Positions 33,838 to 49,876 of a DNA stretch of 64,000 nucleotides are shown here, piece after piece. The position numbers and the translations under genes were made by a program. The stretch's first letter is position 1. Each line of letters opens with the position of its first letter. Source of the DNA: an uncultured delta proteobacterium (lineage in GTDB: Bacteria > Desulfobacterota > Binatia > Binatales > Binataceae). Under the pieces are notes generated by a model. It made no database searches. It was given only the letters and a program-made list of their open reading frames with translations, and was not told the DNA's origin. The DNA is taken from contig CAWCDG010000004.1 in assembly GCA_963794325.1 (NCBI GenBank), positions 768,001 to 832,000 on the forward strand, in the 5' to 3' direction.

Positions 33838-34284
33838 TCACATCCCCTTGCCGCTCATGCGCAGGCGGCGGCCAGTCAAACGAACCCCCGTGGTTTCATC
33901 GACTACCACCGGACGCACTTCGCGGCCCGTTTCGTTGTCGACCAGAATCACCGGCGGACCGTCTTCGCCCCATAGCCAGTCGCTGCCCCATCGCCACATC
34001 GCGGCCAGCACGTCCCAAAACGCCTTGCCCTTGTCCGTCAGCCGATACTCGAAACGCGGAGGGCGATCCTCGTACGAGACTTTTTTCAGCAGCCCTTCAT
34101 CGACCAGCCGATCGAGCCGCCGGGCGAGCACTGCGCGCGGGACTTTCAGCGCGCGCTGGAAATCCTCGAAGCGGCGGCGTCCCAGGAACGCCTCGCGCAT
34201 CACGAGCGGCGTCCACCAATCGCCGACCAGGTCGGTGGTGCGCGCGATTGGGCACGGCCACTGATCGAACCGGGTTCGCCGCAT
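33838..34284 (-). CDS. HxlR family winged-helix regulator
   Basis: WPCPIARTTDLVGDWWTPLVMRE, PPRFEYRLTDKG. Confidence 0.92.
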   Translation of the reverse strand: MRRTRFDQWPCPIARTTDLVGDWWTPLVMREAFLGRRRFEDFQRALKVPRAVLARRLDRLVDEGLLKKVSYEDRPPRFEYRLTDKGKAFWDVLAAMWRWGSDWLWGEDGPPVILVDNETGREVRPVVVDETTGVRLTGRRLRMSGKGM

Positions 34285-36536
34285 CAGGCAACCGCCTCGA
34301 TTCGCGCCGGCACGTGCTTGTGAAATGGCGTGCCCGCGAACCAGTCGCGATCCTCGGTCACCGTAAGCTCGTTCGGCGCGACCCCGTGCTGAAATTCCTG
34401 TCCTTCGCGGTCGGGGTACCACAGTCCCGTTCCGTTCGGCAGCGCGACGTGCCCAGGCAGCATCGTATCCGTCAGCTCGACCACACTCTCCGCGCTCGCA
34501 CGCTTGGTCGTGATACGTACACGGCCGCCGCTTTGAACTCCAAGCGCGGCGGCGTCAGCCGGGTTCATCCAGAGCGCGCCCGCCGGATCCTTAGGACGCC
34601 AACCCGGATCGCGGATGATCGTGTTCGCGGTGCCGGATCGCCGCTGGCCCGCCGAGAGCACGAATGGAAATTCAGGATCGTGCGACGGCTGCTCGTCGCG
34701 CAGTGATTTGAGCTCAGGCATCAGCTCGCCGATAGTCAGATTGATCTTATTGTCGTGAATTCTGCGCCAGGTTTCTTCGTATGAATCGACACTGACCACG
34801 ACGCCCGATCGCTCTTTCAAAATCGCGTCGAACAGCGCGTTGCCGAGTGCCGGACCTTCTTCGATGAAGCCCGCGCGGCGCAACGACTCCGGATACCTGC
34901 GCGCGAAGTTTTGCGCGATACCGAACAGTGACGCCGCATTCTCGTTGCCCTTCCCCAGCGTCGGACCGAGAGTCTCATACAGCAGCACCGTTATTACTTC
35001 CCCCAGATGCGGCCGCTCGGACACGACTCGCATCAGCTCCATCGCGTAGGCGGCCCTGCCCTTGGCGGCCGCTGCGTGCAGAGGCGCAACGTCTTCATCG
35101 GTCATCGCGCCGATCGCGCGAACCAGCCGGCGATGGATTTCTCCCTCGGGCAGCGTTCCGGGAATCGGATCGAGAATCGGCGCGCGCAGCGTGAACGTAT
35201 TCGCGTAGTCCGTCTCGGTATGGAACGCCGCGCCGAAGAAAGTCGCTTCCCATTTTTCGTACTGCGACGACGCCGGCAGCACGTAGTGCGCCTCACGCGC
35301 GCTCTCGCTCATCGCAACGTCGATGACCACGACAAATTCCAGCGCCCGCAGCGCCTCGCGCATCCGCGTGCTGTCGGCGACCGAGTGCGCGGGATTTTCG
35401 CTTTCAATGAGCATCGCGCGGAACCGCTTGGGATGGTCCGTCAGGATTTCATCGGGGATCACGTTGGCCGGGATCATTCCGCCGATGATGCGATGCCCGC
35501 CGACCGGACTGGTCTGCGATGACAGCGCTCCGCCGAACATCCCGGTCAGACTGGTTCCCGCATTCATGCCGCCGCGCTTCCCGACGTTCCCGGTCACCGC
35601 GAACAGAAGTTTCTCCAGGTATGAGTTGAGGGTGCTATGCAGCGACTGCTCGATCCCTAAGTCTTCGTAAACCGAAACGCTCGACGCGCGCGCGATACGC
35701 CGGGCGACGTCGCGAACCAGCGCTTCGTCGAGGCCCGCCCGCGCACAATAATCCGCCACCGGAACGTCGCTCAGCGCCGCGAACAGTTCGTCGCTGTTTT
35801 GCGTGCGATCGCGAATGTAGTCGTGACTGATCAGATCCTCTTGCACCAGCACGCCGAGGATCGCTGAAAGACAGAACGCATCCGTGCCCGGACGCACTCT
35901 CAAATGGTAGTCGGCCATCTCCGCGGTCTCCGTGCGGCGCGGATCGATCACGACGAGCGCGCGGTTTGGGTCTGCCGCAATGTCGCGGAGAATCGGACGC
36001 GCGCGCTGGAAGCCATGCGACTGCCATGGATTCTTGCCGACGAATACCGCGACCTCCGCTTGCTGATAGCTTCCGCCGAGTCCCGTTCCGAAAAGCTGAT
36101 GGTCCACCCAGAACTCGCCGGTCTTTTCCTGCGCAAGAGCGTTGGAGCTGAACACCGAACCAAGCGCGCGGCGCGTCGACGCACCATAACTGCCGCACAG
36201 ATGATTGCCCTGTCCGCCGCCGCCGTAATAGAAGATGCTCGCGCCGCCGTGGGCATCCCGCACTTTCTTGAATCCCGTCGCGACCTCGGCAATCGCGGTG
36301 TCCCAATCGATTTCCTCGAAGCTGCCGTCGGGACGCCGCCGAAGCGGTGACGTCAGCCGGTCGCGCCCGTTCTGGTAGTAGTCGATTCGCTGCGCCTTCT
36401 CGCATGCGTAGCCCTTCGACGCGACGTGATCGCGATTTCCACGGACCCGAGTGATGCGACGCCCGTCGAGTTTTACTTCCACGCCGCAGTTCACGCTGCA
36501 CAGGATGCAAATAGTTTTCTGCCAGTCGTCGCTCAT
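34284..36536 (-). CDS. molybdopterin-dependent oxidoreductase (DMSO reductase superfamily)
   Basis: CILCSVNCG..C [4Fe-4S] motif, VIDPRRTETA, RPGTD, VLPASSQYEK, MNPADAAALG. Confidence 0.92.
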   Translation of the reverse strand: MSDDWQKTICILCSVNCGVEVKLDGRRITRVRGNRDHVASKGYACEKAQRIDYYQNGRDRLTSPLRRRPDGSFEEIDWDTAIAEVATGFKKVRDAHGGASIFYYGGGGQGNHLCGSYGASTRRALGSVFSSNALAQEKTGEFWVDHQLFGTGLGGSYQQAEVAVFVGKNPWQSHGFQRARPILRDIAADPNRALVVIDPRRTETAEMADYHLRVRPGTDAFCLSAILGVLVQEDLISHDYIRDRTQNSDELFAALSDVPVADYCARAGLDEALVRDVARRIARASSVSVYEDLGIEQSLHSTLNSYLEKLLFAVTGNVGKRGGMNAGTSLTGMFGGALSSQTSPVGGHRIIGGMIPANVIPDEILTDHPKRFRAMLIESENPAHSVADSTRMREALRALEFVVVIDVAMSESAREAHYVLPASSQYEKWEATFFGAAFHTETDYANTFTLRAPILDPIPGTLPEGEIHRRLVRAIGAMTDEDVAPLHAAAAKGRAAYAMELMRVVSERPHLGEVITVLLYETLGPTLGKGNENAASLFGIAQNFARRYPESLRRAGFIEEGPALGNALFDAILKERSGVVVSVDSYEETWRRIHDNKINLTIGELMPELKSLRDEQPSHDPEFPFVLSAGQRRSGTANTIIRDPGWRPKDPAGALWMNPADAAALGVQSGGRVRITTKRASAESVVELTDTMLPGHVALPNGTGLWYPDREGQEFQHGVAPNELTVTEDRDWFAGTPFHKHVPARIEAVA

Positions 36537-36555
36537 AGCGGGCCTCCCTGTATCC

Positions 36556-36599
36556 AGTTCATCTAAAGAACTACATAGTTCAACAAGAGAATGAACTAT
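36556..36599. promoter_or_regulatory. tandem inverted-repeat operators (probably HxlR)
   Basis: AGTTC-N7-GAACT (36556-36572) and ATAGTTCA-N9-TGAACTAT (36575-36599) upstream of the Mo enzyme-hxlR operon. Confidence 0.6.
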
Positions 36600-36689
36600 C
36601 TTTCAATTCCACGCAATCGGAAAAAATTCGGCCCGCCGGGTTCAAATCACGATCTACGGCTCCTTCCTTCCGGCCGCACTGAGATGAAC

Positions 36690-36785
36690 TGGCGGAGGGG
36701 GGAGGGAGTCGAACCCTCCGGCAACAATATTAGCCGCCAAGCCGGTTTTGAAGACCGGTGGGGCCACCGGGCCCCTTCCTCCTCC
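36690..36785 (-). tRNA. selC: tRNA-Sec (UCA)
   Basis: 8-bp acceptor stem (one A.C mismatch), 6-bp D stem GGGGCC/GGCCCC, CCGGT-CTTCAAA-ACCGG anticodon arm, long variable arm, GAGGG-TTCGACT-CCCTC, G discriminator plus CCA. Confidence 0.93.
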
Positions 36786-36964
36786 AGCCCTTGTTTATTA
36801 AGGGGTTACAGCGATTTGCACAACCTGAGAATCGGCTCGAGTGCCACTTACTGCCCACAATTTTCGGATTCGGTTTTCCGCAAAGGTCAGAAGCATGTAG
36901 CCTTGGCGATTCCGCCGGAACCTTTTGAGACTCCTGGCTGCCTCGCTACCTTGGTGGTTTGGTA

Positions 36965-38824
36965 ATGCTCGCGCCTCCACGTCAAGAGCGCTATATCATC
37001 GAGCAGGTTTTCAGCGAGATGCATCCATCGGAAGATCAGCTCCGGATCATGATCGATACCATGCCCGCACTGGCATGGTCCTGTCTGCCCGATGGCGCCA
37101 ATGAATTTACCAATAAGCGATGGCGCGATTATACCGGGCTTTCACAGGTCGAAGCTCTCGGGTTGGGATGGCAACGGACATTTCATCCGGACGATTTGGG
37201 AAAGGTCATGGAGAATTGGCGCGCCGTTCAGGCTTCCGGAGAACCGAGCGGGGCGGAAGCCCGCATGCGGCGGTTCGACGGAGAGTATCGCTGGTTCCTG
37301 ATTCGTGCCGAACCGGTTCGCGACCAGCACGGTAACATCGTCAGATGGTTCGGAACGAGTACGGATATCGAGGAGCTGAAGCGAGCCGAGAAGGAGCTTC
37401 GCGACCTAGTTGACTACGTTCCACAGCTCATCGTTATCCGTGAACCCGATGGACGCAGTCTATACGCCAACCGAGCTACCCTTGAGTATCTTGGCCGCAC
37501 CTTCGAGGAGTTTCTAGAACCAGGCTTTGATCAGACAGTGATCCATCCCGACGATTGGGACAAAGTGACGAGCGCGAGCCTGCGGGGCTCCCACCCTGTG
37601 CAGTTCGAACTCGAAGCACGAATGAAGGGGAAGGACGGCCTCTATCGCTGGTTTCTGTATCGCTTCAATCCTCTGCTGGACTGTGACGGACGCGTCCTTC
37701 GTTGGTTCGTGACGGGTACTGAAATCGAAGCTCTGAAACAAGCCGAAGAGAGGGCGCAGAATGAGAACCTGGCGCTACGTGAGGAAGTCGACAAGGCTTC
37801 GATGTTCGAGGAGATCGTCGGAAATTCGCCCACTCTGCGAGCGGTCTTAACTCGAGTCGCCAAGGTTGCGCCGACTGAATCCACGATCCTTATCGCCGGT
37901 GAGACCGGAACGGGTAAGGAGCTCATCGCCCGCGCGATCCACAAGCGATCGTTGCGATCCTCGCGCCCGTTCGTGAGCGTGAACTGTGCGGCGATCCCGC
38001 AATCGTTGATCGCCTCGGAGTTGTTCGGTCACGAGAAAGGAGCCTTCACTGGAGCGTCGCAGCGCCGTCTTGGCCGCTTCGAGATGGCCGAGGGCGGTAC
38101 GCTGTTCCTCGACGAGGTCGGCGAGCTTCCCACCGAGACCCAGATTGCTCTTCTACGCGTACTTCAGGATCGTCAGTTCGAGCGTGTCGGCGGTAATCAG
38201 CCAATTCGAGCAGACGTCCGAGTGATCTCCGCCACTAATCGGGATCTAAAAGCCGCGATGGCAACTGGCGCTTTTCGCAGCGACCTGTTCTATCGCTTGA
38301 ACGTATTTCCCATCGAGATTCCTCCTCTCCGGGAAAGGACGGACGATATTCCGATCCTGGTCGAGTACTTCATCGACCGCTACGCGACCGAAGCGGGGAA
38401 AAAAATACGCTATGTCAGCAAAGAGAGCATGGAACTGCTTCAGTCCTATCCCTGGCCCGGCAACGTTCGCGAGCTGCAGAATGTAATCGAGCGCTCAGTG
38501 ATCCTTTGCGAAACGGAAACGTTTTCAGTCGACGAGAGTTGGCTGTCCCACGACACTGATCGGACCGTGCCCGCGAGCCAGCCGCTAGTCCAAATGCTCG
38601 CGACCCAGGAAAAGGCGTTGATCGAAACAGCGTTGGCTGAAACACGCGGCCAAGTGTCCGGCCCCACGGGTGCTGCTGCGAAACTCAGCATGCGTCCGTC
38701 CACGCTGGAATCCAAGATCAGAACACTTAAGATCAACAAACACCGCTTCAAAGCCCCTAGCGAGGGTCCATCTGAGTCCTCGCAATCCACTCGCGGAGGT
38801 AGGCGGGGCAATTTTCGAATTTGA
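36965..38824 (+). CDS. PAS-PAS sigma54-dependent activator (FhlA-like C-terminus)
   Basis: Two PAS/PAC units (HPDD..., DG.YRWFL), GETGTGKE, GHEKGAFTGA, WPGNVRELQN, SGPTGAAAKL HTH. Confidence 0.93.
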   Translation: MLAPPRQERYIIEQVFSEMHPSEDQLRIMIDTMPALAWSCLPDGANEFTNKRWRDYTGLSQVEALGLGWQRTFHPDDLGKVMENWRAVQASGEPSGAEARMRRFDGEYRWFLIRAEPVRDQHGNIVRWFGTSTDIEELKRAEKELRDLVDYVPQLIVIREPDGRSLYANRATLEYLGRTFEEFLEPGFDQTVIHPDDWDKVTSASLRGSHPVQFELEARMKGKDGLYRWFLYRFNPLLDCDGRVLRWFVTGTEIEALKQAEERAQNENLALREEVDKASMFEEIVGNSPTLRAVLTRVAKVAPTESTILIAGETGTGKELIARAIHKRSLRSSRPFVSVNCAAIPQSLIASELFGHEKGAFTGASQRRLGRFEMAEGGTLFLDEVGELPTETQIALLRVLQDRQFERVGGNQPIRADVRVISATNRDLKAAMATGAFRSDLFYRLNVFPIEIPPLRERTDDIPILVEYFIDRYATEAGKKIRYVSKESMELLQSYPWPGNVRELQNVIERSVILCETETFSVDESWLSHDTDRTVPASQPLVQMLATQEKALIETALAETRGQVSGPTGAAAKLSMRPSTLESKIRTLKINKHRFKAPSEGPSESSQSTRGGRRGNFRI

Positions 38825-39020
38825 TGCCATCTGCATTCCAGCGCGCGAGTTCCGCCACCACTTCCCGATCGACGCGCTTCACCTCTCGGAGATCCAAAAC
38901 GGTTGGCAGAGCCTCTCCATCGAATGCCACTTGCAACTCCGTGGCATGCTCGGCGTCGATATGGCCACTGAGTGTGAAGAGCACGAAGTCAGGGTTCGCA
39001 GACCTTACGATCTTCAGCAT
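38757..39020 (-). CDS. small STAS-like protein
   Basis: MLKI...FTLSGHI...VLDLREVKRVDREVV...CPAYLREWI; has its own sigma54 promoter. Confidence 0.75.
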   Translation of the reverse strand: MLKIVRSANPDFVLFTLSGHIDAEHATELQVAFDGEALPTVLDLREVKRVDREVVAELARWNADGIKFENCPAYLREWIARTQMDPR

Positions 39021-39093
39021 CGATTTTTTCTCGCGCGGCAGGCTCGGATAACTTGATTGTGGAGTTCTTCACGAGCTTCGCGGGCACTCGTAG

Positions 39094-39109
39094 AGCCAGA
39101 TACGTGCCA
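39094..39109 (-). promoter_or_regulatory. sigma54 -24/-12 promoter (leftward)
   Basis: TGGCACGTATCTGGCT = GG-N10-GC. Confidence 0.7.
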
Positions 39110-39189
39110 CGGCCCGCTCCCGGGCAAAACGTCTCACTTCGGCCAGACATCACAGCGCCGCGACAATAACGATCGCAACCGAAGGTCGT

Positions 39190-39215
39190 GAGTTTTCGAG
39201 AATTCGCGAAAACTC
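39190..39215. promoter_or_regulatory. palindromic upstream activator sequence
   Basis: GAGTTTTCGAGAATTCGCGAAAACTC, a 26-bp palindrome with one mismatched pair, midway between two sigma54 promoters. Confidence 0.6.
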
Positions 39216-39284
39216 GCGAATGAGTGTTCGCGGCGACGCAGAGGCAAAGCTCGATAATCAAGGATGTGTGGCGTGCATAGCGAC

Positions 39285-39300
39285 GGGTACGACGCTTGCA
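39285..39300 (+). promoter_or_regulatory. sigma54 -24/-12 promoter (rightward), with an IHF-like site at 39256-39268
   Basis: GGGTACGACGCTTGCA = GG-N10-GC; AATCAAGGATGTG has one mismatch to WATCAANNNNTTR. Confidence 0.72.
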
Positions 39301-39359
39301 CACACCCCTCTCGCCTGTCGCAACGATCAGACTTAACTCACTCAGAATAGGAGTCGCTC

Positions 39360-40055
39360 ATGTCTAAGATGAAGCGCAGCGAGAAAGGACTGCTGACCCC
39401 GGATAATTGCGTGGTCGCGCTGATCGACCATCAGCCTCAGATGCTCTTTGGAGTTTCCAATTTCGACCGCCAATCGATCATCAACAACACCGTCGCGCTA
39501 GCGAAAGCGGCAAGGGTATTCTCTCTCCCAGTTGTCCTCAGCACGGTGGAAAGCAAGAGTTTCAGCGGAAATATCTGGCCGCAGATCAAGGCTGTCTTTC
39601 CGAACCAGGTCCCCATCGAGCGAACTTCTATGGATGCCTGGGATGACAAGAACTTCGTTGCCGCGATCGAAAAGAGCGGCCGGAAAAAGATCGTTTTGGC
39701 GGGACTTTGGACGGAAACCTGCGTCGCGCTGCCAACCATCCAGGCCATTCACGACGGCTACGAAATCTATGTGGTCGAAGATTGCTGCGGCGACGTGAGC
39801 CAACTTAATCACGACAATGCGATGAAGCGTGTGATCCAGGCCGGCGCCAAACCCGTTACCGCACTATCCGTGATGCTCGAATGGCAGCGCGATTGGGCAG
39901 AGACAGACACATACGACGCGGTCATGGACATCGTGAAGACTCACTGTGGCGCCTACGGCGTCGGCGTCGAGTATGCATACACAATGATACACGGACTTCC
40001 GCCGACGCAGTTAGCCGCATACGTCGTTCCGCAGGCCCCGGCGAAGCAAAAGTAA
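39360..40055 (+). CDS. YcaC-like isochorismatase-family cysteine hydrolase
   Basis: LIDHQPQM, IERTSMDAWDD, GLWTETCV, LEWQRDWA. Confidence 0.92.
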   Translation: MSKMKRSEKGLLTPDNCVVALIDHQPQMLFGVSNFDRQSIINNTVALAKAARVFSLPVVLSTVESKSFSGNIWPQIKAVFPNQVPIERTSMDAWDDKNFVAAIEKSGRKKIVLAGLWTETCVALPTIQAIHDGYEIYVVEDCCGDVSQLNHDNAMKRVIQAGAKPVTALSVMLEWQRDWAETDTYDAVMDIVKTHCGAYGVGVEYAYTMIHGLPPTQLAAYVVPQAPAKQK

Positions 40056-40112
40056 CAACACGGCCGGTGTTCGCGTTCTCAATCACGAGCAAGGTGAGAA
40101 GAGGAGCAGCGT

Positions 40113-41921
40113 ATGCAGCCCGACAGTATTGTCCATAATGCCAGGATCGCAACGAATGGCGTCCCGTCGTTCGTCGAAGCAGTCGCTATCACGGACGGAA
40201 AGATCAGTGCGGTAGGTCGCAGTGACGAGATTCTGCGGCAGCGTGGCCCGGCGACGAATGTGATCGATTGCGGTGGCCGCACCGTCATTCCCGGCCTGAA
40301 TGACTCGCACATGCATCCGATCCGCGGCGGGCTTAACTACAACATGGAGTTGCGTTGGGATGGTGTGCCGTCGCTTGCCGACGCACTGCGTATGCTGAAG
40401 TCGCAAGCTGCGCTGACACCTGCCCCGCAGTGGGTGCGAGTGGTAGGAGGATGGACGGAATTCCAGTTCGCGGAACGGCGTATGCCCACGCTGGATGAGA
40501 TCAACGCGGTGTCACCGGACACGCCGGTCTTTGTGCTCCACTTATATGATCGCGCGCTTCTAAATGCGGCGGCGCTACGCGCTGTCGGATACACCAAAGA
40601 TACGCCTCCACCACCTGCCGGCGAGATCCAGCGCGATCGCCAGGGCAATCCAACAGGACTGCTCATCGCCAAGCCCAGCGCGATGATTCTCTACGCCACG
40701 CTGGCCAAGGGACCCAAACTCTCGCGCGAAGACCAGATAAATTCGACGCGCCTGTTCATGCGCGAGCTCAATCGGTTCGGTATAACGAGCGTCGTAGACG
40801 CTGGAGGCGGCTTCCAGAATTATCCAGATGACTACGAAGTCGTGCGCGAGCTGCACGAGCGCGGCGAGATGACGGTCCGCCTGGCGTACAATCTGTTTAC
40901 TCAGAAGCCGAAGCAAGAGCTGGGCGACTTTCAGTCGTGGACCCGGATGACGAAACCCGGCGCGGGCGACGATTTTTTCCGGATGAACGGCGGGGGCGAG
41001 ATGCTCGTCTACTCGGCGGCGGATTTCGAGGATTTCCTCGAGCCACGTCCTGAAATGCCCGACCCGATGGAAGCGGAACTAAAGTCAGTGGTACGGCACC
41101 TCGCTGAGAATCGCTGGCCGTTCCGGCTGCACACGACCTACGAGGAGACCATCACGCGCGCGCTGAACGTGTACGAAGAAGTGAATCGCGAGGTCCCATT
41201 CGACGGTCTTCACTGGTTCTTCGACCACTGCGAAACGATCTCAGATCGCAATATCGAACGCGTCAAAGCACTCGGCGGCGGTATCGCGGTTCAGGACCGG
41301 ATGGCGTTTCAAGGCGAATATTTCGTCGATCGCTACGGCGCCAAGCAGGCGAGGCGTACTCCGCCGATCAGGAAAATGCTTGAGTTGGGCGTACCGGTCG
41401 GCGCGGGCACAGACGCGACGCGGGTCTCAAGCTACAACCCATTCCTTTCGTTGTACTGGCTCATCACCGGCAAGACCATCGGCGGGACCGCGCTCTACAA
41501 TGAGGACAACCGCCTGGAACGGATGGAGGCGCTTCGCCTGTATACCGTCGGCAGCAGTTGGTTCTCTTCAGAGGACGGCAAGAAGGGATCGCTCGCACCC
41601 GGCCAACTGGCGGATCTGGCCGTGCTGTCCGCGGACTACTTTTCGATTCCTGAAGATGAGATCAAACGTCTGGAGTCCGTGCTGACGATAGTGGACGGCA
41701 AAATAGTCTACGCGAATGAACCATTCGCAAAGCTCGCACCTCCGGCGTTGCCGGTGAGTCCCGACTGGTCGCCGGTCAAGCAGTACGGCGGTTACTGCCG
41801 AACTCCATTGACACACGCCGCAGCGAATCTCCATTCGGCAAAGCGCGTGAGCGAATCGCGTTCTCACATTTGGCATCCGCGCCACTTATGGGATTTTGGG
41901 TGCGATTGCTTCGCGTTCTAA
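40113..41921 (+). CDS. amidohydrolase_3 (YtcJ/NfdA-like)
   Basis: PGLNDSHMH, ELRWDGVPSL, FRLH, DHCE, GAGTDATRV, GQLADLAVLS, C-terminal GCDCFAF. Confidence 0.92.
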   Translation: MQPDSIVHNARIATNGVPSFVEAVAITDGKISAVGRSDEILRQRGPATNVIDCGGRTVIPGLNDSHMHPIRGGLNYNMELRWDGVPSLADALRMLKSQAALTPAPQWVRVVGGWTEFQFAERRMPTLDEINAVSPDTPVFVLHLYDRALLNAAALRAVGYTKDTPPPPAGEIQRDRQGNPTGLLIAKPSAMILYATLAKGPKLSREDQINSTRLFMRELNRFGITSVVDAGGGFQNYPDDYEVVRELHERGEMTVRLAYNLFTQKPKQELGDFQSWTRMTKPGAGDDFFRMNGGGEMLVYSAADFEDFLEPRPEMPDPMEAELKSVVRHLAENRWPFRLHTTYEETITRALNVYEEVNREVPFDGLHWFFDHCETISDRNIERVKALGGGIAVQDRMAFQGEYFVDRYGAKQARRTPPIRKMLELGVPVGAGTDATRVSSYNPFLSLYWLITGKTIGGTALYNEDNRLERMEALRLYTVGSSWFSSEDGKKGSLAPGQLADLAVLSADYFSIPEDEIKRLESVLTIVDGKIVYANEPFAKLAPPALPVSPDWSPVKQYGGYCRTPLTHAAANLHSAKRVSESRSHIWHPRHLWDFGCDCFAF

Positions 41922-41934
41922 GGAGGGCAGTATT

Positions 41935-42126
41935 ATGGCCGCTGCCATCATTGGACTCGTTCTTGGCTTGGTCATCGGAGCCGGATGCCGGTTCTTCGAT
42001 ATTCCATCGCCAGCACCCCCGCGCTTGATTGGGGCGTGTCTCTTGCTCGCGATGACGGTAGGCTTCGTTACTGCAGACCATATACTGTCGCCGGGGAAAA
42101 CATTGGTGCAACTGGATACACCATGA
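41935..42126 (+). CDS. XapX domain (DUF1427) small membrane protein 1
   Basis: GAGCRFFDIPSPAPP.LIGA; AGGAGG RBS. Confidence 0.82.
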   Translation: MAAAIIGLVLGLVIGAGCRFFDIPSPAPPRLIGACLLLAMTVGFVTADHILSPGKTLVQLDTP

Positions 42127-42359
42127 AATCGATGATCGGCATTGCACTGGCGTTCGCATTGGGGTTCGCGTGCCGGGCGTTCGGAATTCCATCGCCGGCA
42201 CCACCTCTAATACTTGGCGCATTGCTCGTGATGACAATGACGATCGGTTACATCGCAGTCGATCGCTGGATGGCGTCGCCGGCTCAGCATGCTCCGGATT
42301 GCGGCGGACCGAGCGGGCTGGCCGCATCTCAGGCACTATCGAAAAGTGCGGAGCACTGA
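42123..42359 (+). CDS. XapX domain (DUF1427) small membrane protein 2
   Basis: GFACRAFGIPSPAPPLILGA; ATGA-coupled; C-terminal CGGPSG. Confidence 0.85.
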   Translation: MKSMIGIALAFALGFACRAFGIPSPAPPLILGALLVMTMTIGYIAVDRWMASPAQHAPDCGGPSGLAASQALSKSAEH

Positions 42360-42400
42360 GCGATGCCAGCGCTGCAATTCGCCGAGTTCGTCGCGTTCGT

Positions 42401-43873
42401 GTGACAGAAAATTCGGTGCACTCGGCATACACCCAACAAGGTCAATCTCGTTCTCGATCATGGCAATTGGTTGTCGCTGCCGGTGCTGCTGTTCTAGTGC
42501 TAGCAAGTGTCGCCCGGAGCCAGGCGGCCTCGTCCTGTCCTTCGGGGCCAAAGTATTCGAATGTCCGATACGATGACGATTTCAGCTACCTGCGCGATCC
42601 CGCATGCCGCAATGATTTCTGGGATCCGCTCAAATACATACCACTCAATTCGCGACGAGACTGGTATCTTTCTCTCGGCGGTGAAATCCGCGAACGCTAT
42701 GAGCGCTTTAACAATCCTCTTTGGGGGCAGCAACCCCAGAGTCGCGGCGGATACCTGTTGCAACGGTATTTCCTCATTGGCGATCTCCACTTGGGAGAAA
42801 GCGTACGGATTTTCTCTGAATTGATGAGCGATTGGGAAAACGACAGGGTCGGCGGACCGCGCCCAATGATCGATCAGGATCAGCTGGATTTCACACAGTT
42901 CTTTGTCGATCTAAAACTGCACCCGTTCGGTTCCGATACTTCGTTAACACTTCGTGTCGGTCGCCAGTGGTTGATCTATGGATCTCAGCGTTTGATATCC
43001 AATCGCTACGGACCCAACGTGCCCCTGCCGTTTGATGGAGTGAAAGCGATTTTGAATGCGGCTCCTTGGCGCGTCGATGCCTTCGCGACCAAGCCGGTCG
43101 AAACCAACCCCGGCGTCTTCGACGACCAGTCTCATCTGCCCTCATGGTTCTGGGGAATTTACGCTGTGCGACCGCTCTCATTCATCGATGGCGCCAACAT
43201 CGACCTCTACTACTTGGGGACTCACAATAAGACTGCTACCTACGCGAATGAGTCGGGCAAGGAAAGTCGGCAAACCGTTGGCACCCGCCTGTGGGGCGTC
43301 CGAGGGGCTTGGGACTCCAACTCAGAATTCGTCGGTCAGACCGGAACATTTGCCGACGGCTACATCCTGGCCTGGAGCGCAGCTACGGATACCGGTTATA
43401 CGCTACAGCCCGTTCCACTCCAGCCTCGAATCGGGCTACGGGCGGGTGTCGCTAGCGGCGATCACGACAAACATGGTCCAAACCTTCAGACATTCAGTCC
43501 ATTATTCCCCACTGGTTTCTATTTCAACCAGGCGATTCTTAACGGTCCGTTAAATGAAATGGGTGTTCATCCGAACCTCATGCTTCACATGGGTGAAAGC
43601 ATTGCACTCAATGGCGAATGGGGCTGGTTCTGGCGCCAAAGCACTAGTGATGGGATCTACGGACTCGGTTCAAACCTGTTACGCCCGGTTGGGACTACCA
43701 AGGATACCTACGAAGGCAGCCAGGCCCAGGTGACATTCGATTGGCAGCTCGATGCTCACACGCACTTTCAAATTAACTACCTGCACTTTTTCGTAGGAGG
43801 CTATCTTAAAGATACGTCGCCAGTCGGAAAAGATGTGGATTTCGTGACAACGTCAATTCAATACCTCTTTTAG
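42401..43873 (+). CDS. alginate export (AlgE-like) outer-membrane beta-barrel (start uncertain)
   Basis: RYDDDFSYL, DPLKYIPL, LSLGGEIRERYE, LRVGRQ, ASGD; terminal Phe. Confidence 0.85.
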   Translation: MTENSVHSAYTQQGQSRSRSWQLVVAAGAAVLVLASVARSQAASSCPSGPKYSNVRYDDDFSYLRDPACRNDFWDPLKYIPLNSRRDWYLSLGGEIRERYERFNNPLWGQQPQSRGGYLLQRYFLIGDLHLGESVRIFSELMSDWENDRVGGPRPMIDQDQLDFTQFFVDLKLHPFGSDTSLTLRVGRQWLIYGSQRLISNRYGPNVPLPFDGVKAILNAAPWRVDAFATKPVETNPGVFDDQSHLPSWFWGIYAVRPLSFIDGANIDLYYLGTHNKTATYANESGKESRQTVGTRLWGVRGAWDSNSEFVGQTGTFADGYILAWSAATDTGYTLQPVPLQPRIGLRAGVASGDHDKHGPNLQTFSPLFPTGFYFNQAILNGPLNEMGVHPNLMLHMGESIALNGEWGWFWRQSTSDGIYGLGSNLLRPVGTTKDTYEGSQAQVTFDWQLDAHTHFQINYLHFFVGGYLKDTSPVGKDVDFVTTSIQYLF

Positions 43874-43886
43874 AAGGAACGCCCCG

Positions 43887-44810
43887 ATGCGAATAACCAG
43901 AGCCTTTATGGCGGCTATCATTGTTCTTCTCGTTATTGGCTATGTTGGTCCTTTGTCGTTCCCTACACCAGCATTTGCCGAGACCGCGAGAGCTACTTCA
44001 AACGTGGCTGTGGGTCCTCAATATGACACGACCCACGTTTATGTCGCGCCAGGTGAATTCGACACTTTCGTCGCTAGCCTTGTTGCAACTTTTGGCGGCA
44101 CGACTTCGAAGAAAGGTGTCTTCACTGTAACCCCTACTCCCAGCAAGACGATGTCTCAATTGGTACTCACACCAGTGGGAACAATATCCGTCTTCGGTTT
44201 CGAGACGCCGATTCCGTATCCATTTGGCTCAGAGCGGACGGGTTATCTTGTGACTGACATGGAGTCGGCGATCAGCGCTGCTCACGCGACCGGCGCAGAT
44301 ATTCTCGTCAGTCCCTTCAAGGATCCGATCGGCCTGGATGCGATCATCCAATGGCCGGGCGGGGTCAACACACAACTGTACTGGCATACCACCGCACCAT
44401 CTTATGCGCCTCTCCAGAGCATTCCGGAAAATCGTGTTTACGTCTCCTCATATGCAGTGAGCGCTTTCGTGCGCAGCTTTCGTGCCTTCTCACACGGCGA
44501 AGTTATTTCAGATGATGCGCATGCCCCCGGCCTCGAAATCGGACGCCCCGCCGATACTTATCGAAGAATTCGAATCCAATCGAAGTTTGGCAAGATGACC
44601 GTGCTCGTGACAGATGGCCATCTGCCGTATCCATATGGACGAGAGATAACCGGGTATGAGGTCGCTAACCTCTCGGACACCCTCTCCAAGGCCAAAGCAG
44701 CCGGCGTAGCCGTCCTCGTCGATCCCTACAAAGCCGACGATCGGAATGCAGCCATGGTGCGATTTCCTGGCGGCTACATAGCTGAAGTCCATTCGCTCGT
44801 CAGTAGATAG
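43887..44810 (+). CDS. exported glyoxalase/VOC-fold protein
   Basis: Signal peptide (PAFA-E), VAVGPQYDTTHVYV, ERTGYLV, FPGGYIAEVH. Confidence 0.8.
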   Translation: MRITRAFMAAIIVLLVIGYVGPLSFPTPAFAETARATSNVAVGPQYDTTHVYVAPGEFDTFVASLVATFGGTTSKKGVFTVTPTPSKTMSQLVLTPVGTISVFGFETPIPYPFGSERTGYLVTDMESAISAAHATGADILVSPFKDPIGLDAIIQWPGGVNTQLYWHTTAPSYAPLQSIPENRVYVSSYAVSAFVRSFRAFSHGEVISDDAHAPGLEIGRPADTYRRIRIQSKFGKMTVLVTDGHLPYPYGREITGYEVANLSDTLSKAKAAGVAVLVDPYKADDRNAAMVRFPGGYIAEVHSLVSR

Positions 44811-44871
44811 AATGCGAAGGCAACAGTCTTTTACTCCAGGTACTAGCTCGCGTCCAAGAGGTTAGGCTAGC

Positions 44872-46518
44872 TTGGCGCCTCGCGAAGAAACTGCCGATCC
44901 AGCGACGCCTTCGAACCAACGGCCGAACTCTGCCTGGAGCCCGTTTCGGCATAAGACCTTCGCCGTCATTTGGACCGCGACCGTTATCTCAAACATCGGC
45001 GGCTGGATGTACAGCGCAGCGTCGGGCTGGCTGATGACCAGCCTCAACCCTTCGCCGCTTATCGTTTCGATGGTCCAGGTTGCAACGAGTTTACCGTACT
45101 GCCTCTTTGCCCTTCCGGCCGGCGCACTTGCCGATATCGTGGACCGGCGCAAACTTCTCATCTTCGGCGAGGTCGTTACGATCGTTTTCTCGTCCGCGCT
45201 TGCCGCGCTCGTACTGCTTCATCGGGTAACTCCACTGAACTTGCTGCTTCTTACATTCCTAATAGAGGCGGGCTCTGCCGTCATCGCGCCCGCCTGGCAA
45301 GCAGTCGTTCCACAGCTCGTTCCGAAATCGGATTTGGCTGCAGCGGTGTCTGCCAACAGCGCCGGCATCAACGTCAGCCGCGCCGTCGGTCCCGCGCTCA
45401 GCGGTGCAGTAATTGGCGCGTACGGAATTGCGGCTCCCTTTTGGATCAACGCCGTTAGCACCCTGGCGGTTGTTGGCGCGCTCGTATGGTGGCGCCAATC
45501 GAGTAGCGGCGACCGACGTCTGCCCCCAGAGCGCTTCCTCAATGCCATTCGCACGGGTTTGCGATATGCGCGATACAACGGACCTCTTAGTGCGACCCTG
45601 ATCCGCGCAACAGCCTTCTTCGTGTTCGCCAGCGCTTACTGGGCCTTATTGCCGCTTGTTGCGCGCAGACAAATCGCCGGGGGACCGGAAATCTACGGCG
45701 TCCTACTCGGTGCGATCGGCGCCGGAGCGGTAGGCGGTGCATTTGCTTTGCCTCGATTAAAAGCGGCGCTCAATCCCGACTGGCTCGTAGCTGTAGGGAC
45801 CTTTGGCACCGCTAGTGCGATGGCGTTATTCGGGCTGGCTCACGAGGTCTTTTTGGGTTTGGCCGCAAGCTTGATCGCTGGCGTTTCGTGGATCACGGTG
45901 CTGTCCAGTCTCAATATTTCAGCGCAGGTCGCGTTGCCGGAATGGGTGCGCGGGCGCGGACTTTCTATGTTCGTAACAGTCCTTTCCGCCGGTTTGACGA
46001 TTGGCAGCGCGATATGGGGACAGGTTGCGACGATTGCTGGCCTTCCACTCGCCCACTTCATCGCCGCGGGCGGCGCGTTGATAGCGATACCGCTAACGTG
46101 GAGATGGAAGCTGCAAACCGGCGCTGACCTCGACCTGACGCCCTCGATGAGGTGGCCTGCACCGATCACCACTCATGAAATCGAACGCGATCGCGGACCG
46201 GTACTTATAACGACGGAGTACGACATCGATCCGGCGCAGCGCGAAGCGTTCCTGAAGGCGATCGCCGAATTGGCACGCGAGCGCCGCCGCGACGGCGCGT
46301 ACGACTGGGGAATATTCGAGGATCCGGCGAACGACGGTCGATTTGTTGAGACCTTTCTCGTCGATTCCTGGTTGGAGCATCTGCGGCAGCATGAGCGTGT
46401 GACCAAAGCCGATAGTGCGCTACAGATAGCCGTCGATCGCTTTCAGAGGAAAGGCGCACCGAAAGTCACACATCTGATCGCAGCAGATCTTCCCGGCGCC
46501 TCGAACGCCGACCGTTAG
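44872..46518 (+). CDS. MFS transporter (MFS_3/DUF894) with C-terminal soluble domain
   Basis: GALADIVDRRK, LPEWVRGRG, GPVLIT.EY, RRRDGA..WG, WLEHLRQHERVT. Confidence 0.9.
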   Translation: MAPREETADPATPSNQRPNSAWSPFRHKTFAVIWTATVISNIGGWMYSAASGWLMTSLNPSPLIVSMVQVATSLPYCLFALPAGALADIVDRRKLLIFGEVVTIVFSSALAALVLLHRVTPLNLLLLTFLIEAGSAVIAPAWQAVVPQLVPKSDLAAAVSANSAGINVSRAVGPALSGAVIGAYGIAAPFWINAVSTLAVVGALVWWRQSSSGDRRLPPERFLNAIRTGLRYARYNGPLSATLIRATAFFVFASAYWALLPLVARRQIAGGPEIYGVLLGAIGAGAVGGAFALPRLKAALNPDWLVAVGTFGTASAMALFGLAHEVFLGLAASLIAGVSWITVLSSLNISAQVALPEWVRGRGLSMFVTVLSAGLTIGSAIWGQVATIAGLPLAHFIAAGGALIAIPLTWRWKLQTGADLDLTPSMRWPAPITTHEIERDRGPVLITTEYDIDPAQREAFLKAIAELARERRRDGAYDWGIFEDPANDGRFVETFLVDSWLEHLRQHERVTKADSALQIAVDRFQRKGAPKVTHLIAADLPGASNADR

Positions 46519-46788
46519 CCTTCACGATAGCGCAATTCCGACAACTCGAATTCCGGTCCAGATAAGTGTCCAACAGGGTCTTGCTGGTTCTCATTCAGTG
46601 CGGGAAGTTTTCCCACCCTGACCCACCTTAGACCAAAAGACGTCCTGACTAAAATTCTGCGATCGCAAGCCTCTCGGAGGTAGCCGCTCGATTCCGCTCT
46701 GCCCAAGCTATCAGGGAATCTAAATAGAACCCGGGAATCATCTACTACCGCTCGACTTCCACGACTAATGCCTGGCCCGCGTTCGAAT

Positions 46789-47814
46789 TTATGCTTGCAG
46801 TCTCTCAGCAGCGTGCCGGTAGGCAAACATGAAGTACGCCGCGACCAACGCCATTCCCGGAATGAACCATACCAGTCCGATGCTGAGTCCATGGCTGGAA
46901 GCGGAGGCGTTATAGATGGTCAATCCATTTTGGGCATCGCTAATCGAAGGTAGCAGGTATGGATAGTGCCCGAATGCGGCCGCAGCGAGCATCGTAAGGA
47001 CATACGCGCATGAACACAGGAACGCGGCTGGATCACGATCAGCACGGCTTGACAATTTCACCCCCGCGAGGCTACCGAGAGCCGTTACCGGGAAAATAAA
47101 TCCCCAAGGGCGAGCCGCGTAGCGGCGCGCGAAATGGGGCAGCGTTAGTGGAACGACTAACAGGAGCGCGATTGTCAGCAGCACGAGGATCGCCCACGCT
47201 AGATGGGCCATCCGCCGCGAGCGAGATTGCAGCTCGCCACGAGTCTTCATTGCGACCCACAGCGCGCCATGCATTGTAAGCGCCGCAACGCTCGCCACGC
47301 CCAACGTAATCGTGAACCAATCCAGGATGCCCGGGTCGGGTCCGATGCGAAAATTTGTCCAGAGCGGAAGAAAGAAAGAATCGTTCGCGTCGAGTGGAAC
47401 TCCGCGCATAACGTTACCCAGGGCGGCGCCGAAAAAAAGTGCAAGTAGGGCGCTAGCCCCCGCAAAGACCACGTCCCAGAACGGCATCCAGACGGGACTT
47501 CTTATGTGATTGCGAAACTCCACAGCGATGCCGCGCAAGATGAGCAGCCACAGCACAATCATCAACGGCAAATAAAATCCGCTGAATCCAGATGCGTATG
47601 CGGCGGGGAATGCGAAGAAGAGAGTACCGCCCCCAGCGATCAACCACACTTCGTTCCCGTCCCAAACAGGCCCGATCGATTTCAAGAGTACGCGGCGCTC
47701 AGAATCAGTCCGGGCGACAACCAAATGGACAATTCCGACACCCATGTCGAAACCATCAAGCACCGCGAAGATCGCGAACATGACCGCGACTATGCCGAAC
47801 CACAGTGTATTCGT
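46789..47814 (-). CDS. cydB: cytochrome bd oxidase subunit II (start codon reads ACG)
   Basis: LDGFDMGVG, IGPVWDGNEVWL; AGGAGAG-CACT-ACG AAT ACA CTG TGG where MNTLW is expected. Confidence 0.88.
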   Translation of the reverse strand, partial: TNTLWFGIVAVMFAIFAVLDGFDMGVGIVHLVVARTDSERRVLLKSIGPVWDGNEVWLIAGGGTLFFAFPAAYASGFSGFYLPLMIVLWLLILRGIAVEFRNHIRSPVWMPFWDVVFAGASALLALFFGAALGNVMRGVPLDANDSFFLPLWTNFRIGPDPGILDWFTITLGVASVAALTMHGALWVAMKTRGELQSRSRRMAHLAWAILVLLTIALLLVVPLTLPHFARRYAARPWGFIFPVTALGSLAGVKLSSRADRDPAAFLCSCAYVLTMLAAAAFGHYPYLLPSISDAQNGLTIYNASASSHGLSIGLVWFIPGMALVAAYFMFAYRHAAERLQA

Positions 47815-47828
47815 AGTGCTCTCCTGTC

Positions 47829-49187
47829 TCAGTCTGCGGCAGCGAGAACGTCTTGCGAGCCCGAATGCTCTACACCGCCAGGTCCGCGCTGGATCTCGAG
47901 ATAGATCAAGAACAGGAATAGGACCGAAAGCGCCGCATACATCCCCATGAAGCCTATCAGCGTGAACAATCCATTTCCCGCCGATACCAAGGGAGATATT
48001 CCAACGTCCGTGCGCATAAGCCCATAGACGAGCCACGGCTGACGTCCTAACTCGGCCGTAATCCATCCCGCCGTCGTAGCTATGTATGGAAATGGCGCGA
48101 GCAGCATCAACGCCCACAGCACCAACGGCGTGTCATACAGACGGCGTCGATACAGCAGCCATCCCGCCAGCGCGAAGACCGCGACGAAGATCGTCCCCAA
48201 GCCGACCATGATATGGTAGGCGTAATAGAGGAGTGGGATGTTATCCGGCCATTGATTACTGGGAAACTCCAGCAGCCCTTGCACCTCGGCCTTCCAGCGG
48301 CGATAGGTCAGAAAGCTCAGCACATCTGGAACAACTATTGGATTATCGATCTTTCGAGCTTCCACATTCGGCTGGCCGATGATCACGAGGGGCGCACCGC
48401 GCTGGTTTTCAAACAAACCTTCCATCGCCGCCAGGGTAACCGGTTGATAGCGCGCAACGTTTCGCCCCTGTCCGTCTCCAGTTGGAAACACCATCAGGAG
48501 AGATGCTATCAGTCCCGCGATCACACCCAGGCGCACGAATGTCTGGCCGAAGTCCTCGAACTGATGCATCAGGAGATAGAACGCTCCCAGCGCCGCCATC
48601 GCCACCGAGCCAGTTACTACCGCGCCCATCATGTTGTGAAGGTATTGCCAGATCGCCCATGGGTTGGTCAGAAGTGCTACCAGGCTCGTCAACCCGAACG
48701 TGCCGTCGTTGTTGATCGAGAAGCCCACCGGATGCTGCATCCATGCGTTAGTCGCGATAATGAAGAAGCCTGAGATCCACGAGCCCAGAAATACGAGGAA
48801 GGCCGCAAGCCAATGAAGGCGCGGCCCCAGCTGCTTTTCGCCGAACAGGAATGCGCCTAGAAACGTGGATTCCAGGAAGAACGAGAAGACCCCTTCCATT
48901 GCAAGCGTTTGTCCGATCACGCCGCCGGCGGTCTTCGAGAACGCCGACCAGTTGGTGCCGAACTGGAACTCCAACGGGATTCCGGTGACTACGCCGACGA
49001 CAAAGTTGATGCCGAAGATGCGACCCCAGAAGCGCGCGGCCTCGTCGTAGTGCCCATCGCCAGTACGAAGCGCGAGTGTCTTGAGGACCACGATAAGGAG
49101 CGCGAGACCCATCGTCAGCTGCGGAAACAGGTAATGAAAGGTGGCAGTGAATGCGAAATGGATACGATCAACCGTCAGTGCATCCAT
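47829..49187 (-). CDS. cydA: cytochrome bd oxidase subunit I
   Basis: FHYLFP, FQFGTNW, NAWMQHP, QPVTLAAMEG, GWITAELGRQPW. Confidence 0.95.
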   Translation of the reverse strand: MDALTVDRIHFAFTATFHYLFPQLTMGLALLIVVLKTLALRTGDGHYDEAARFWGRIFGINFVVGVVTGIPLEFQFGTNWSAFSKTAGGVIGQTLAMEGVFSFFLESTFLGAFLFGEKQLGPRLHWLAAFLVFLGSWISGFFIIATNAWMQHPVGFSINNDGTFGLTSLVALLTNPWAIWQYLHNMMGAVVTGSVAMAALGAFYLLMHQFEDFGQTFVRLGVIAGLIASLLMVFPTGDGQGRNVARYQPVTLAAMEGLFENQRGAPLVIIGQPNVEARKIDNPIVVPDVLSFLTYRRWKAEVQGLLEFPSNQWPDNIPLLYYAYHIMVGLGTIFVAVFALAGWLLYRRRLYDTPLVLWALMLLAPFPYIATTAGWITAELGRQPWLVYGLMRTDVGISPLVSAGNGLFTLIGFMGMYAALSVLFLFLIYLEIQRGPGGVEHSGSQDVLAAAD

Positions 49188-49216
49188 CCTGGCCTCCGAG
49201 CGCGCATTCGCGATCT

Positions 49217-49876
49217 CTAGACAGCTTGCGTAGTTCCCTTCTGCGCGCGCGGCCAGAATACAACGGTAAGCGTCGTTACACCCTGGGCCGGGTGGACCGT
49301 GGTTCCCGCAATATCTGCGGAGCCTGATGGTCCAGACACTGGCTTTTGATAGGCCGCTGGAGCACTCAAATGTTCGCCGGACTGAAGTGCAACGTCGCCA
49401 GACAGAACGATCACGGCGACTCCGCGGCGCGCGATCGCGGTATTCATCGCTGTCTCCAACGCACGCGGCATCTGGGCAGGAGTCGAGACCAACTGACAGT
49501 AGTAGCTGCACTCCCTAAATAGCGACTCGGGATGCGTCTCCTGGAAATAATCGGAACCCATCTCGGCGCTTGGAATATGCGCAGCGATTGCGAGAACCGG
49601 TACAGAGCTTCGATGGCAATCGAAGAGCCCGTTGATTAGATGAAGGTTGCCGGGACCGCAACTCTCGGCACAGACGGCAAGCTCGCCGGTGACGTGCGCG
49701 TCGGCGCCTGCGGCGAAGGCCGCCACTTCCTCGTGGCGGACGTGGACCCATTCGATGGTTTTCTGTCGGCGCATCGCGTCGGTTATCCCGTTGAGCGAGT
49801 CGCCGACTATTCCGTAGATTCGCTTAACGCCCGCCGCGGCGAGCGTCGCTGCCAGGCTTTCCGCCACTGTCGGCAT
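49217..49876 (-). pseudogene. poxB: truncated pyruvate:quinone oxidoreductase (PoxB-like) N-terminal fragment
   Basis: [28 protein letters not shown] (normally GSCGPGNLH); similarity ends after about 165 aa. Confidence 0.85.

Follow-up and report, generated by a model that had tools for sequence, protein, structure and literature searches.

A cluster of seven plus-strand genes is located at positions 39360–46518 of a 64,000-nucleotide stretch of DNA from an uncultured delta proteobacterium of the family Binataceae (assembly GCA_963794325.1, contig CAWCDG010000004.1). This whole stretch is referred to here as the window, and all coordinates are window positions. The host genome is 4.45 Mb in size and 85% complete. 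The cluster joins a YcaC-like isochorismatase-family cysteine hydrolase with AMH3, a YtcJ-type Amidohydro_3 metallohydrolase, and this pair of genes recurs side by side in many bacterial phyla. The reading preferred here, to which we assign an even chance of being correct, is that the cluster is induced to hydrolyze, in two steps, a small amide-type compound that is probably uncharged, and that it serves either nitrogen scavenging or detoxification.

The original prediction described seven tightly packed, co-directional genes, and this arrangement was confirmed by coordinates, gaps and family searches. All seven genes are intact, and the intergenic gaps are, from 5′ to 3′, 57, 13, −4, 41–56, 13 and 61 nt. 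Between 38500 and 47500, 3.6 sigma-70-like promoters were expected and none was found. Gaps of at most 61 nt together with the lack of internal sigma-70-like promoters are compatible with a single transcript. The placement of the products in the outer membrane, periplasm, inner membrane and cytoplasm was also upheld, for the VOC protein at the level of the fold only.

A scan of species-representative genomes for AMH3 relatives matched at least 599 stretches, and 597 of 599 encode an AMH3 relative as judged by tblastn. The linkage counts given below as "of 80" refer to the best 80 of these at least 599 stretches. AMH3 is 63–89% identical in these loci, which come from many phyla (Acidobacteriota, Binatus, Verrucomicrobiota, Planctomycetes, Cyanobacteria, Myxococcota and Proteobacteria). 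Open reading frames (ORFs) were called up to 7 kb from AMH3 and clustered, and the clusters were named with Pfam. Of the 80 loci, 61 have flanks of 3 kb or more on each side and are termed well flanked. A YcaC-like gene is found no more than 7 kb from AMH3 in 65 of the 80 loci, including 56 of the 61 well-flanked ones. It belongs to the same-strand run as AMH3 in 59 of 80 loci and is usually directly upstream of it. Five well-flanked loci lack a YcaC-like gene, and one of these exceptions, L025, has a short 88% tblastn match. The co-location of the two genes is far above chance. The recurrence of a neighborhood of YcaC, amidohydrolase and XapX genes had been stated in the original prediction, and the neighborhood analysis bears this out for the pair and, in 21 of 80 loci, for XapX. 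Carriers of the pair include Tunturiibacter lichenicola, Serratia proteamaculans, Pseudomonas izuensis and Herbaspirillum aquaticum.

The first gene (39360..40055) encodes the YcaC-like hydrolase, with a match to Pfam Isochorismatase at E 1.1e-30. Its best NCBIfam family is YcaC (NF041461), with 145.5 bits against an equivalog cut-off of 310, which it does not reach. The best PDB matches are E. coli YcaC 1YAC and P. aeruginosa 4WGF (E 3.5e-34 and 2.2e-33, respectively). These are octameric cysteine hydrolases with which the YcaC-like protein has in common the isochorismatase fold and the Asp-Arg-Cys site. D23, R88 and C121 are invariant in all 58 aligned sequences and match Asp19, Arg84 and Cys118 of the P. 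aeruginosa YcaC active site, in which Arg replaces the usual Lys (available part of PMC4519933). The window protein is roughly 40% identical to canonical YcaC by eye in a printed alignment, whereas two canonical YcaC proteins are about 77% identical to each other (same part of PMC4519933). The AMH3-linked copies of Serratia and Pseudomonas are as distant from 1YAC as the window copy. The YcaC-like proteins therefore form a paralogous clade coupled to AMH3. YcaC is an orphan enzyme, the structure of which was solved in 1998, and we know of no partner enzyme reported for canonical YcaC.

AMH3 (40113..41921) is a protein of 602 amino acids that matches Amidohydro_3 at E 8.2e-133, and this PF07969 match spans positions 2–472 of the 472-position profile. 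H66, H68, E296, H340, H372 and D434 are present in every one of the 70 aligned sequences, and in the model H66, H68, H340, H372 and D434 are the likely metal ligands. Conservation extends well beyond these residues, with 210 of 602 columns at least 97% identical over 80 sequences. AMH3 has no invariant Lys; K202 is conserved at 90% or more, and the invariant E296 lies at the end of a barrel strand in the model. The AlphaFold2 (AF2) model has a predicted local distance difference test (pLDDT) score of 84.6 and is good through residue 563, after which the tail is disordered (residues 564–602, pLDDT below 50). Judging from their invariant catalytic residues, both hydrolases look active.

The tail of AMH3 differs in length between orthologues and in many lineages contains much His and Cys; its end is always GC[D/S/E/T/G]C plus three residues that are mostly hydrophobic (GCDCFAF in the window copy). 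The C-terminal CxC of the amidohydrolase, noticed earlier in the single sequence, proved to be a family trait, as all 70 aligned orthologues have C597 and C599. SlyD-type chaperones bear His/Cys-rich metal-binding tails. By analogy with these, the AMH3 tail may act as a metal-capturing arm. The same feature could be taken to mean that the system acts on soft metals, metalloids or reactive sulfur species and not on an organic amide. As(III) is bound by CxC or vicinal Cys pairs in ArsR and ArsD, the enzyme ArsI belongs to the VOC group, and As(OH)3 passes through aquaglyceroporins. The invariant CxC often follows a His/Cys-rich linker, the XapX helices bear Cys, MIP, TauE and rhodanese neighbors occur, and one XapX/DUF1427 protein has a weak match to MerC (E 3.9e-4, below the cut-off). 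However, no ars, mer, cop or czc genes are found among the recurrent neighbor families, and only a few weak signals are sulfur-related or MerC-like. The linker of the window AMH3 contains no Cys besides the final CxC, and a simpler role for the tail would be that of a SlyD-like arm delivering metal to the binuclear site of AMH3 itself. Metal or sulfur handling is considered very improbable.

The genes that accompany the pair differ among lineages. The most frequent is a gene for an ABM-domain protein with C-terminal membrane segments, present in 34 of 80 loci. It is followed by the Alginate_exp porin in 29 loci (26 of them in a same-strand run), XapX in 21, the VOC protein in 14 (15 by tblastn), pirin and DUF1275 in 13 each, DoxX in 12, SDR in 10, MFS_3 in nine and Zn-ADH in eight. 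An exported Peptidase_M17_N-like protein, which often adjoins the porin, is likewise found in 8 of 80 loci, and a divergent MIP channel in five, all from Acidobacteriota and Verrucomicrobiota, downstream of AMH3 in the operon. The ABM partner (L042, 1154–1708, and 33 other loci) is not a soluble monooxygenase. It comprises a single ABM domain, a GLE-WF motif that is conserved, and two to three membrane segments at its C terminus, and in many loci its gene separates YcaC from AMH3. The ABM partner and XapX never occur together in the locus maps.

Two overlapping genes downstream of AMH3 encode XapX1 (41935..42126) and XapX2 (42123..42359). Both exceed the TIGR03510 cut-off of 27.8 bits, with 55.1 bits (E 4e-15) and 45.1 bits (E 5.2e-12), respectively. 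The ATG of XapX1 is preceded by an AAGGAGG ribosome-binding site, and the start of XapX2 overlaps the stop of XapX1 (ATGA). XapX is a small two-helix membrane protein with an IPSPAPP loop in the alignment. Paired XapX genes are also present in L013, L015, L059, L062, L089, L091 and L074. MIP family channels conduct small uncharged solutes. In four of the five MIP loci, the MIP gene directly follows AMH3, which is the XapX position, and this exchange of MIP for XapX points to a small uncharged solute.

The fifth gene (from 42401 or 42416 (GTG) to 43873) encodes an AlgE-like outer-membrane channel. It matches Alginate_exp (PF13372) at E 2.5e-70 over 385 of 395 profile positions and is the only Alginate_exp match in the host genome. 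AlgE is an alginate export channel. The window porin shares the family match and is tied instead to an operon of small-molecule enzymes. The original prediction had noted the lack of alginate genes near the porin, and none were found among the Pfam-scanned neighbors between 29.9 and 52.6 kb.

The next gene (43887..44810) encodes p307, a protein of 307 amino acids with a hydrophobic, signal-peptide-like N-terminal leader that ends in AFA-E. Its 14 orthologues have a mean column identity of 77%. Sequence searches with p307 gave no match in Pfam (even at E up to 5), NCBIfam or the PDB. The AF2 model, with a moderate pLDDT of 71.2, consists of four beta-alpha-beta-beta-beta modules. Foldseek places the model among two-domain VOC proteins, with Rv0577 first (2.3e-13), followed by hydroxymandelate synthase, HPPD and extradiol dioxygenases (to 1e-9). 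In addition, the ESM Atlas assigns p307 to 'Glyoxalase' clusters with a score of 0.98. The earlier identification of p307 as an exported VOC protein is therefore right at the level of the fold. H50, E116, H167, E181, E300 and H302 are invariant in the 14 sequences. In the model, the residues H50, E116 and H167 and the residues E181, E300 and H302 appear to lie on the strands that usually bear metal ligands, and p307 is probably metal-binding.

The last gene (44872..46518) encodes an MFS_3 (PF05977; EntS/DHA3-like) inner-membrane transporter, with a match at E 9.3e-172 that covers positions 2–519 of 524. Its relatives in other loci are 40–48% identical, and some are encoded between AMH3 and YcaC. 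The import assumed in the original prediction was not borne out; the best NCBIfam relatives of this protein are exporters, and the flux may run in either direction. In L068, L080, L085 and L087 (Pigmentiphaga, Herminiimonas, Halopseudomonas), the order is AMH3, in some cases DoxX, then MFS_3, followed by YcaC in three of the four; in L087, YcaC is upstream of AMH3. This order indicates that MFS_3 can sit within the core pair. These four loci continue with a gene of about 1000–1050 codons and a LuxR-type regulator. An ABM-like C-terminal domain in MFS_3 was considered and dropped, as the best BLASTP match between the ABM partner and this domain had an E of 0.10.

The core pair could be the only coupled part of the cluster, with the porin, VOC, XapX and MFS_3 genes carried along for separate roles. 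Every accessory gene is found in a minority of the 80 loci. The unbroken nine-gene block, which comprises the activator, STAS, YcaC, AMH3, XapX1, XapX2, porin, VOC and MFS_3 genes, is confined to close relatives with 95% identical AMH3 (G006, G021, G011 and G007), among which shared ancestry could preserve the gene order. Another genome of the genus, G013, lacks VOC and MFS_3 and has a divergent porin of 41% identity. On the other side, the porin, XapX, VOC and MFS_3 families recur beside the core in distant phyla with shuffled orders. The VOC gene adjoins the porin gene or lies one gene away from it in 14 of 14 VOC loci, and in loci of the PVC group its place beside the porin is taken by the signal-peptide-bearing Peptidase_M17_N-like protein. 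The porin is without a paralogue in its genome, and the spacing of the genes fits one transcript. Separate roles for the accessory genes are therefore held to be quite improbable. The seven genes had originally been proposed as a single system. They do behave as a unit, and this part stands, whereas near-universality is confined to the YcaC-like/AMH3 pair, and the porin, VOC, XapX and MFS_3 genes are lineage-specific additions.

Within the genus, the block is patchily distributed. The comparison covered 24 other genomes of the genus and 16 genomes from other genera of the class. An AMH3 orthologue is present in 5 of the 24 (four intact, that of G007 broken), missing from the other 19, including G019 and G024, and present in one of the 16. 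None of the flanking genes of the window were found beside the block in the genus genomes that carry it. The molybdenum oxidoreductase gene upstream in the window lies elsewhere in the G006 and G013 genomes, and the cytochrome bd subunit I gene has a match only in G013, on a different contig. From this patchy presence and these differing surroundings, it can be concluded that the block behaves as an accessory unit. In G007, AMH3 (L097, 10074–11885) is spread over several frames with three in-frame TGA codons, owing to either a pseudogene or assembly errors, and the YcaC-like match is shortened. The porin is split into two pieces in different frames in G021 (L095, 7871–9287) and G011 (L096, 9406–10804). 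In L013, the closest locus outside the genus, a DDE transposase fragment (14442–15119; DDE_Tnp_1_4, E 5.7e-29) lies directly 3′ of the porin.

The regulation of the operon is suggested by its upstream region. A PAS-PAS sigma-54 enhancer-binding activator is encoded at 36959..38824 on the plus strand (alternative ATG at 36965). It has a Sigma54_activat domain (E 1.6e-72), two PAS_3 domains, AAA_lid_14 and an HTH_8 match of 19.5 bits, below the cut-off of 22, and a GAFTGA motif can be read in its translation. The activator accompanies the operon in G006, G021, G011, G007, G013, L013, L015 and L098. The region 5′ of the YcaC-like gene was aligned across eight orthologous loci. A −24/−12 promoter element, GGGTACGACGCTTGCA (39285..39300, plus strand), lies 60 nt 5′ of the YcaC-like start and follows the pattern GG-N10-GC with TTGCA. 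It is identical in seven of the eight upstream regions; in L002 it differs by one spacer change, and the flanks vary. Further upstream, the perfect palindrome TTCGCGAAAACTCGCGAA (39203–39220) occurs as an exact copy once in the genome and is adjoined by a degenerate copy with three mismatches (39185–39202). This palindrome is conserved in the alignment and placed between two divergent promoters, and the two copies (39185..39220) form a candidate activator site. The divergent promoter, TGGCACGTATCTGGCT (39094..39109, minus strand), has one mismatch to TGGCAC-N5-TTGCW and lies within a block conserved in all eight regions. An rpoN gene was found in the host genome. A sigma-54 consensus scan of the whole window was uninformative by itself, with 27 matches against 24.9 expected; the case for sigma-54 is made by the conservation of the promoter and not by the scan. 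The sigma-54 control claimed in the original prediction is thus supported at the level of sequence by the promoter element, the palindrome, the activator and rpoN.

The divergent promoter is aimed at an 87-codon STAS_2-like ORF (38757..39020, minus strand; E 2.3e-6), with 28.1 bits, slightly below the cut-off of 29.2. This ORF converges with the activator gene, and their 3′ ends overlap by 68 nt (38757–38824). It is 86–93% identical in relatives. The ORF is probably a real gene, because it is 91–92% identical in L013 and L015, where the activator is 72% identical. SpoIIAA-type proteins carry a DSSG motif. The STAS-like protein has VDREVV at this position and thus lacks the usual phosphorylatable Ser.

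Regulators of the pair vary by lineage: some lineages have LysR, some a PAS-GAF-HisKA_3 kinase together with a response regulator of the LuxR type, and some a sigma-54 activator. The first PAS domain of the window activator, PAS1, is 43–52% identical to the PAS domains of the PAS-GAF-HisKA_3 kinases flanking the operon in L053, L058, L060 and L078, 37% identical to that of the kinase in L041, and 46% identical to the PAS domain of an unclassified large ORF in L022. The best match among other proteins of its own genome is 34%. PAS1 is thus closer to kinases that flank the operon elsewhere than to proteins of its own genome, which suggests that it is an operon-specific sensor. In several relatives, a second PAS sigma-54 activator paralogue (43–56% identical) lies just 5′ of the operon activator (L015, 799–2208 and 5953–6921; L095, 15989–17377; L097, 15131–15943; L096, 3539–4405); this paralogue is absent from the window.

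Taken as one system, these parts suggest the following mechanism. Transcription would start from the sigma-54 promoter, with the activator acting from the palindromic upstream site, which also faces the divergent sigma-54-like promoter of the STAS-like gene. PAS1 probably senses the substrate or a related signal. The envelope route of this lineage would consist of the AlgE-like protein as a dedicated outer-membrane channel, the exported and probably metal-binding VOC-fold protein in the periplasm, the XapX pair as a small-solute passage or membrane adaptor, and the MFS_3 transporter in the inner membrane, working in either direction. The invariant engine would be formed in the cytoplasm by AMH3, with a putative binuclear metal site, and the YcaC-like cysteine hydrolase. 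The two enzymes most probably act in series on a C-N compound of the amide, ureide or cyclic-amide type and release ammonia. In the breakdown of s-triazine/biuret and of creatinine/N-carbamoylsarcosine, enzymes of the amidohydrolase superfamily and isochorismatase-like hydrolases work one after the other, and NicF and RutB are isochorismatase-like amidases.

Several observations weigh against this hydrolytic pathway. To our knowledge, no member of the cluster has an assigned substrate, YcaC, too, being an orphan enzyme. No gene of the cluster would pass a carbon skeleton on to central metabolism; the lack of downstream carbon-handling genes points to nitrogen release or detoxification and not to carbon catabolism. 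The best NCBIfam relatives of the MFS_3 protein are the exporters EntS, Mef and Tet(V), and AlgE also works in export. In 21 of the 61 well-flanked loci, XapX, DoxX, DUF1275, MFS_3 and porin are all missing, and in 6 of the 61 there is still no partner if the membrane-anchored ABM protein is added to this set. On the supporting side, metatranscriptome contigs from four studies of soil or rhizosphere cover 17–28 of 30 bins at 90–99% identity, and some of them span the YcaC/AMH3 (39813–40209), porin/VOC (43832–44222) and VOC/MFS_3 (44782–45074 and 44752–44900) junctions. They give a weak hint of expression of the operon, as most come from relatives of 90–95% identity and RNA libraries may hold DNA. 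No characterised close relative of AMH3 is known. Its nearest folds, 3IGH (2.7e-27) and 3ICJ (1.1e-25), are uncharacterised and 19–20% identical to it, and PDB sequence and profile searches with AMH3 found nothing closer and nothing characterised. Since AMH3 has no invariant Lys, its metal site may differ from that of NfdA/3ICJ-type enzymes.

The chemistry of the first step was originally proposed to be a formamide deformylation. Nothing specific supports this, given the distance of AMH3 from the nearest structures and the unreliable NfdA annotation. According to the part of a 2026 preprint available (PMC13081988), Amidohydro_3 enzymes annotated as N-substituted formamide deformylases can be bile-salt hydrolases, and these are described there as having no activity on N-benzylformamide. 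The NfdA annotation is therefore no guide to the substrate within Amidohydro_3.

A further set of observations bears on the partners. Partners that are frequent elsewhere, namely ABM, pirin, DoxX, SDR, Zn-ADH, ferritin-like and rhodanese proteins, belong typically to sets for quinone, electrophile or redox stress and not to amide catabolism, which adds to the points against amide hydrolysis. They raise the alternative that the hydrolases process a toxic electrophile, lactone or lactam, that the redox partners add further steps, and that MFS_3 and the channel expel the product. The MhqR quinone-resistance regulon of B. subtilis contains DoxX, VOC dioxygenases and alpha/beta hydrolases. The counts of redox-type partners given above fit this alternative, as do the ferritin-like, rhodanese-YceI and SnoaL_2 neighbors seen now and then and the exporter kinship of MFS_3. 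The active-site Cys of YcaC trapped acrylamide in the crystal (available part of PMC4519933). However, the redox partners are not universal. ABM, pirin and VOC, the oxygenase-like partners, are all missing from 18 of the 61 well-flanked loci, a count that also speaks against amide hydrolysis, and the window has only the exported VOC protein. Both near-invariant genes encode hydrolases, and these enzymes are cytoplasmic, whereas the VOC protein of the window is in the periplasm. Detoxification of an electrophile, quinone or redox stressor is therefore regarded as unlikely, and two-step hydrolysis of an amide-type compound is retained as the preferred reading.

The surroundings of the operon include genes of other functions. 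A tRNA-SeC gene (36690–36785, minus strand) lies between the sigma-54 activator gene and a molybdopterin oxidoreductase gene (34284–36536, minus strand) with Fe4S4, Molybdopterin and Molydop_binding domains. A genomic island at tRNA-SeC was considered and rejected; no notable flanking direct repeats were found in 36540–47000, and the position of the operon is 5′ of the tRNA. The genes for cytochrome bd oxidase subunits II and I (46789–49511, minus strand) converge on the end of the operon. Both ORFs begin about 100 codons before the Pfam match, and translation probably begins further in.

AMH3 belongs to a very large family, to which at least 8000 proteins in the database match with an E of 1e-50 or better. 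The family is strongly conserved, and it is known by name only as 'amidohydrolase' or 'YtcJ', the 120 closest proteins being called 'predicted amidohydrolase YtcJ' or 'amidohydrolase'. The partner that almost always accompanies AMH3 is a paralogue of YcaC, which has long been an orphan enzyme. The absence of an assigned substrate or function, stated in the original prediction, agrees with the full-text literature, in which no account of the pair or the operon was found, the search not extending to supplementary fitness and expression tables. The function can be tested directly, since the pair is defined, the sensor domain is specific and some carriers can be cultured. Were the substrate a common small nitrogen compound, the pair would add a missing route in soil nitrogen turnover and give roles to XapX/DUF1427 and to AlgE-like channels unrelated to alginate. 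A bolder version, which we hold to be rather doubtful, is that the pair represents a widespread, as yet undescribed pathway of two enzymes that acts on a small neutral nitrogen compound from soils and waters (for instance a short amide, a formyl-amide, a ureide or a molecule of the cyanamide type) and has its own envelope conduit. XapX would then be a new class of minimal two-helix channel for small solutes, interchangeable with MIP, the AlgE-like barrel would serve small molecules and not a polymer, and the AMH3 tail would be a built-in metallochaperone arm. Working out the system would also provide the first physiological handle on the YcaC family.

Among known systems, the Nic (NicX-NicD-NicF), s-triazine/biuret (AtzA-C, BiuH) and creatinine pathways follow the same logic, in which C-N cleavage or ring opening is followed by an ammonia-releasing isochorismatase-like amidase. 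The first hydrolase of the Nic pathway is an alpha/beta hydrolase and does not belong to the amidohydrolase superfamily. The clusters of these pathways are not known to contain a YtcJ-type enzyme of this kind, XapX, an AlgE-like channel or an exported VOC protein, and the likeness is one of logic and not of sequence orthology. AMH3 resembles YtcJ-like enzymes such as NfdA, the metal-dependent bile salt hydrolases and 3ICJ/3IGH in its full-length PF07969 match and its HxH-His-His-Asp pattern; the comparison with NfdA is by description only. The tail with the terminal GCxCFAF is unique to AMH3. NfdA and 3ICJ have a carboxylated Lys (figure legend in the preprint, PMC13081988), whereas AMH3 has the invariant E296. 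The fmdCABDEF system of Methylophilus methylotrophus for short-chain amides as well as urea, in the part of PMC10781810 available, encodes an amide-degrading formamidase with its own porin, FmdC, and is induced by its substrate. Its enzyme families differ from those described here, and uptake is by an ABC system. FmdC was considered as a relative of the window porin and set aside, as it is closest to a phosphate-porin-like protein (available part of PMC5877670), and the analogy is functional only. As such, fmdCABDEF provides a precedent for an amide enzyme with a dedicated outer-membrane porin.

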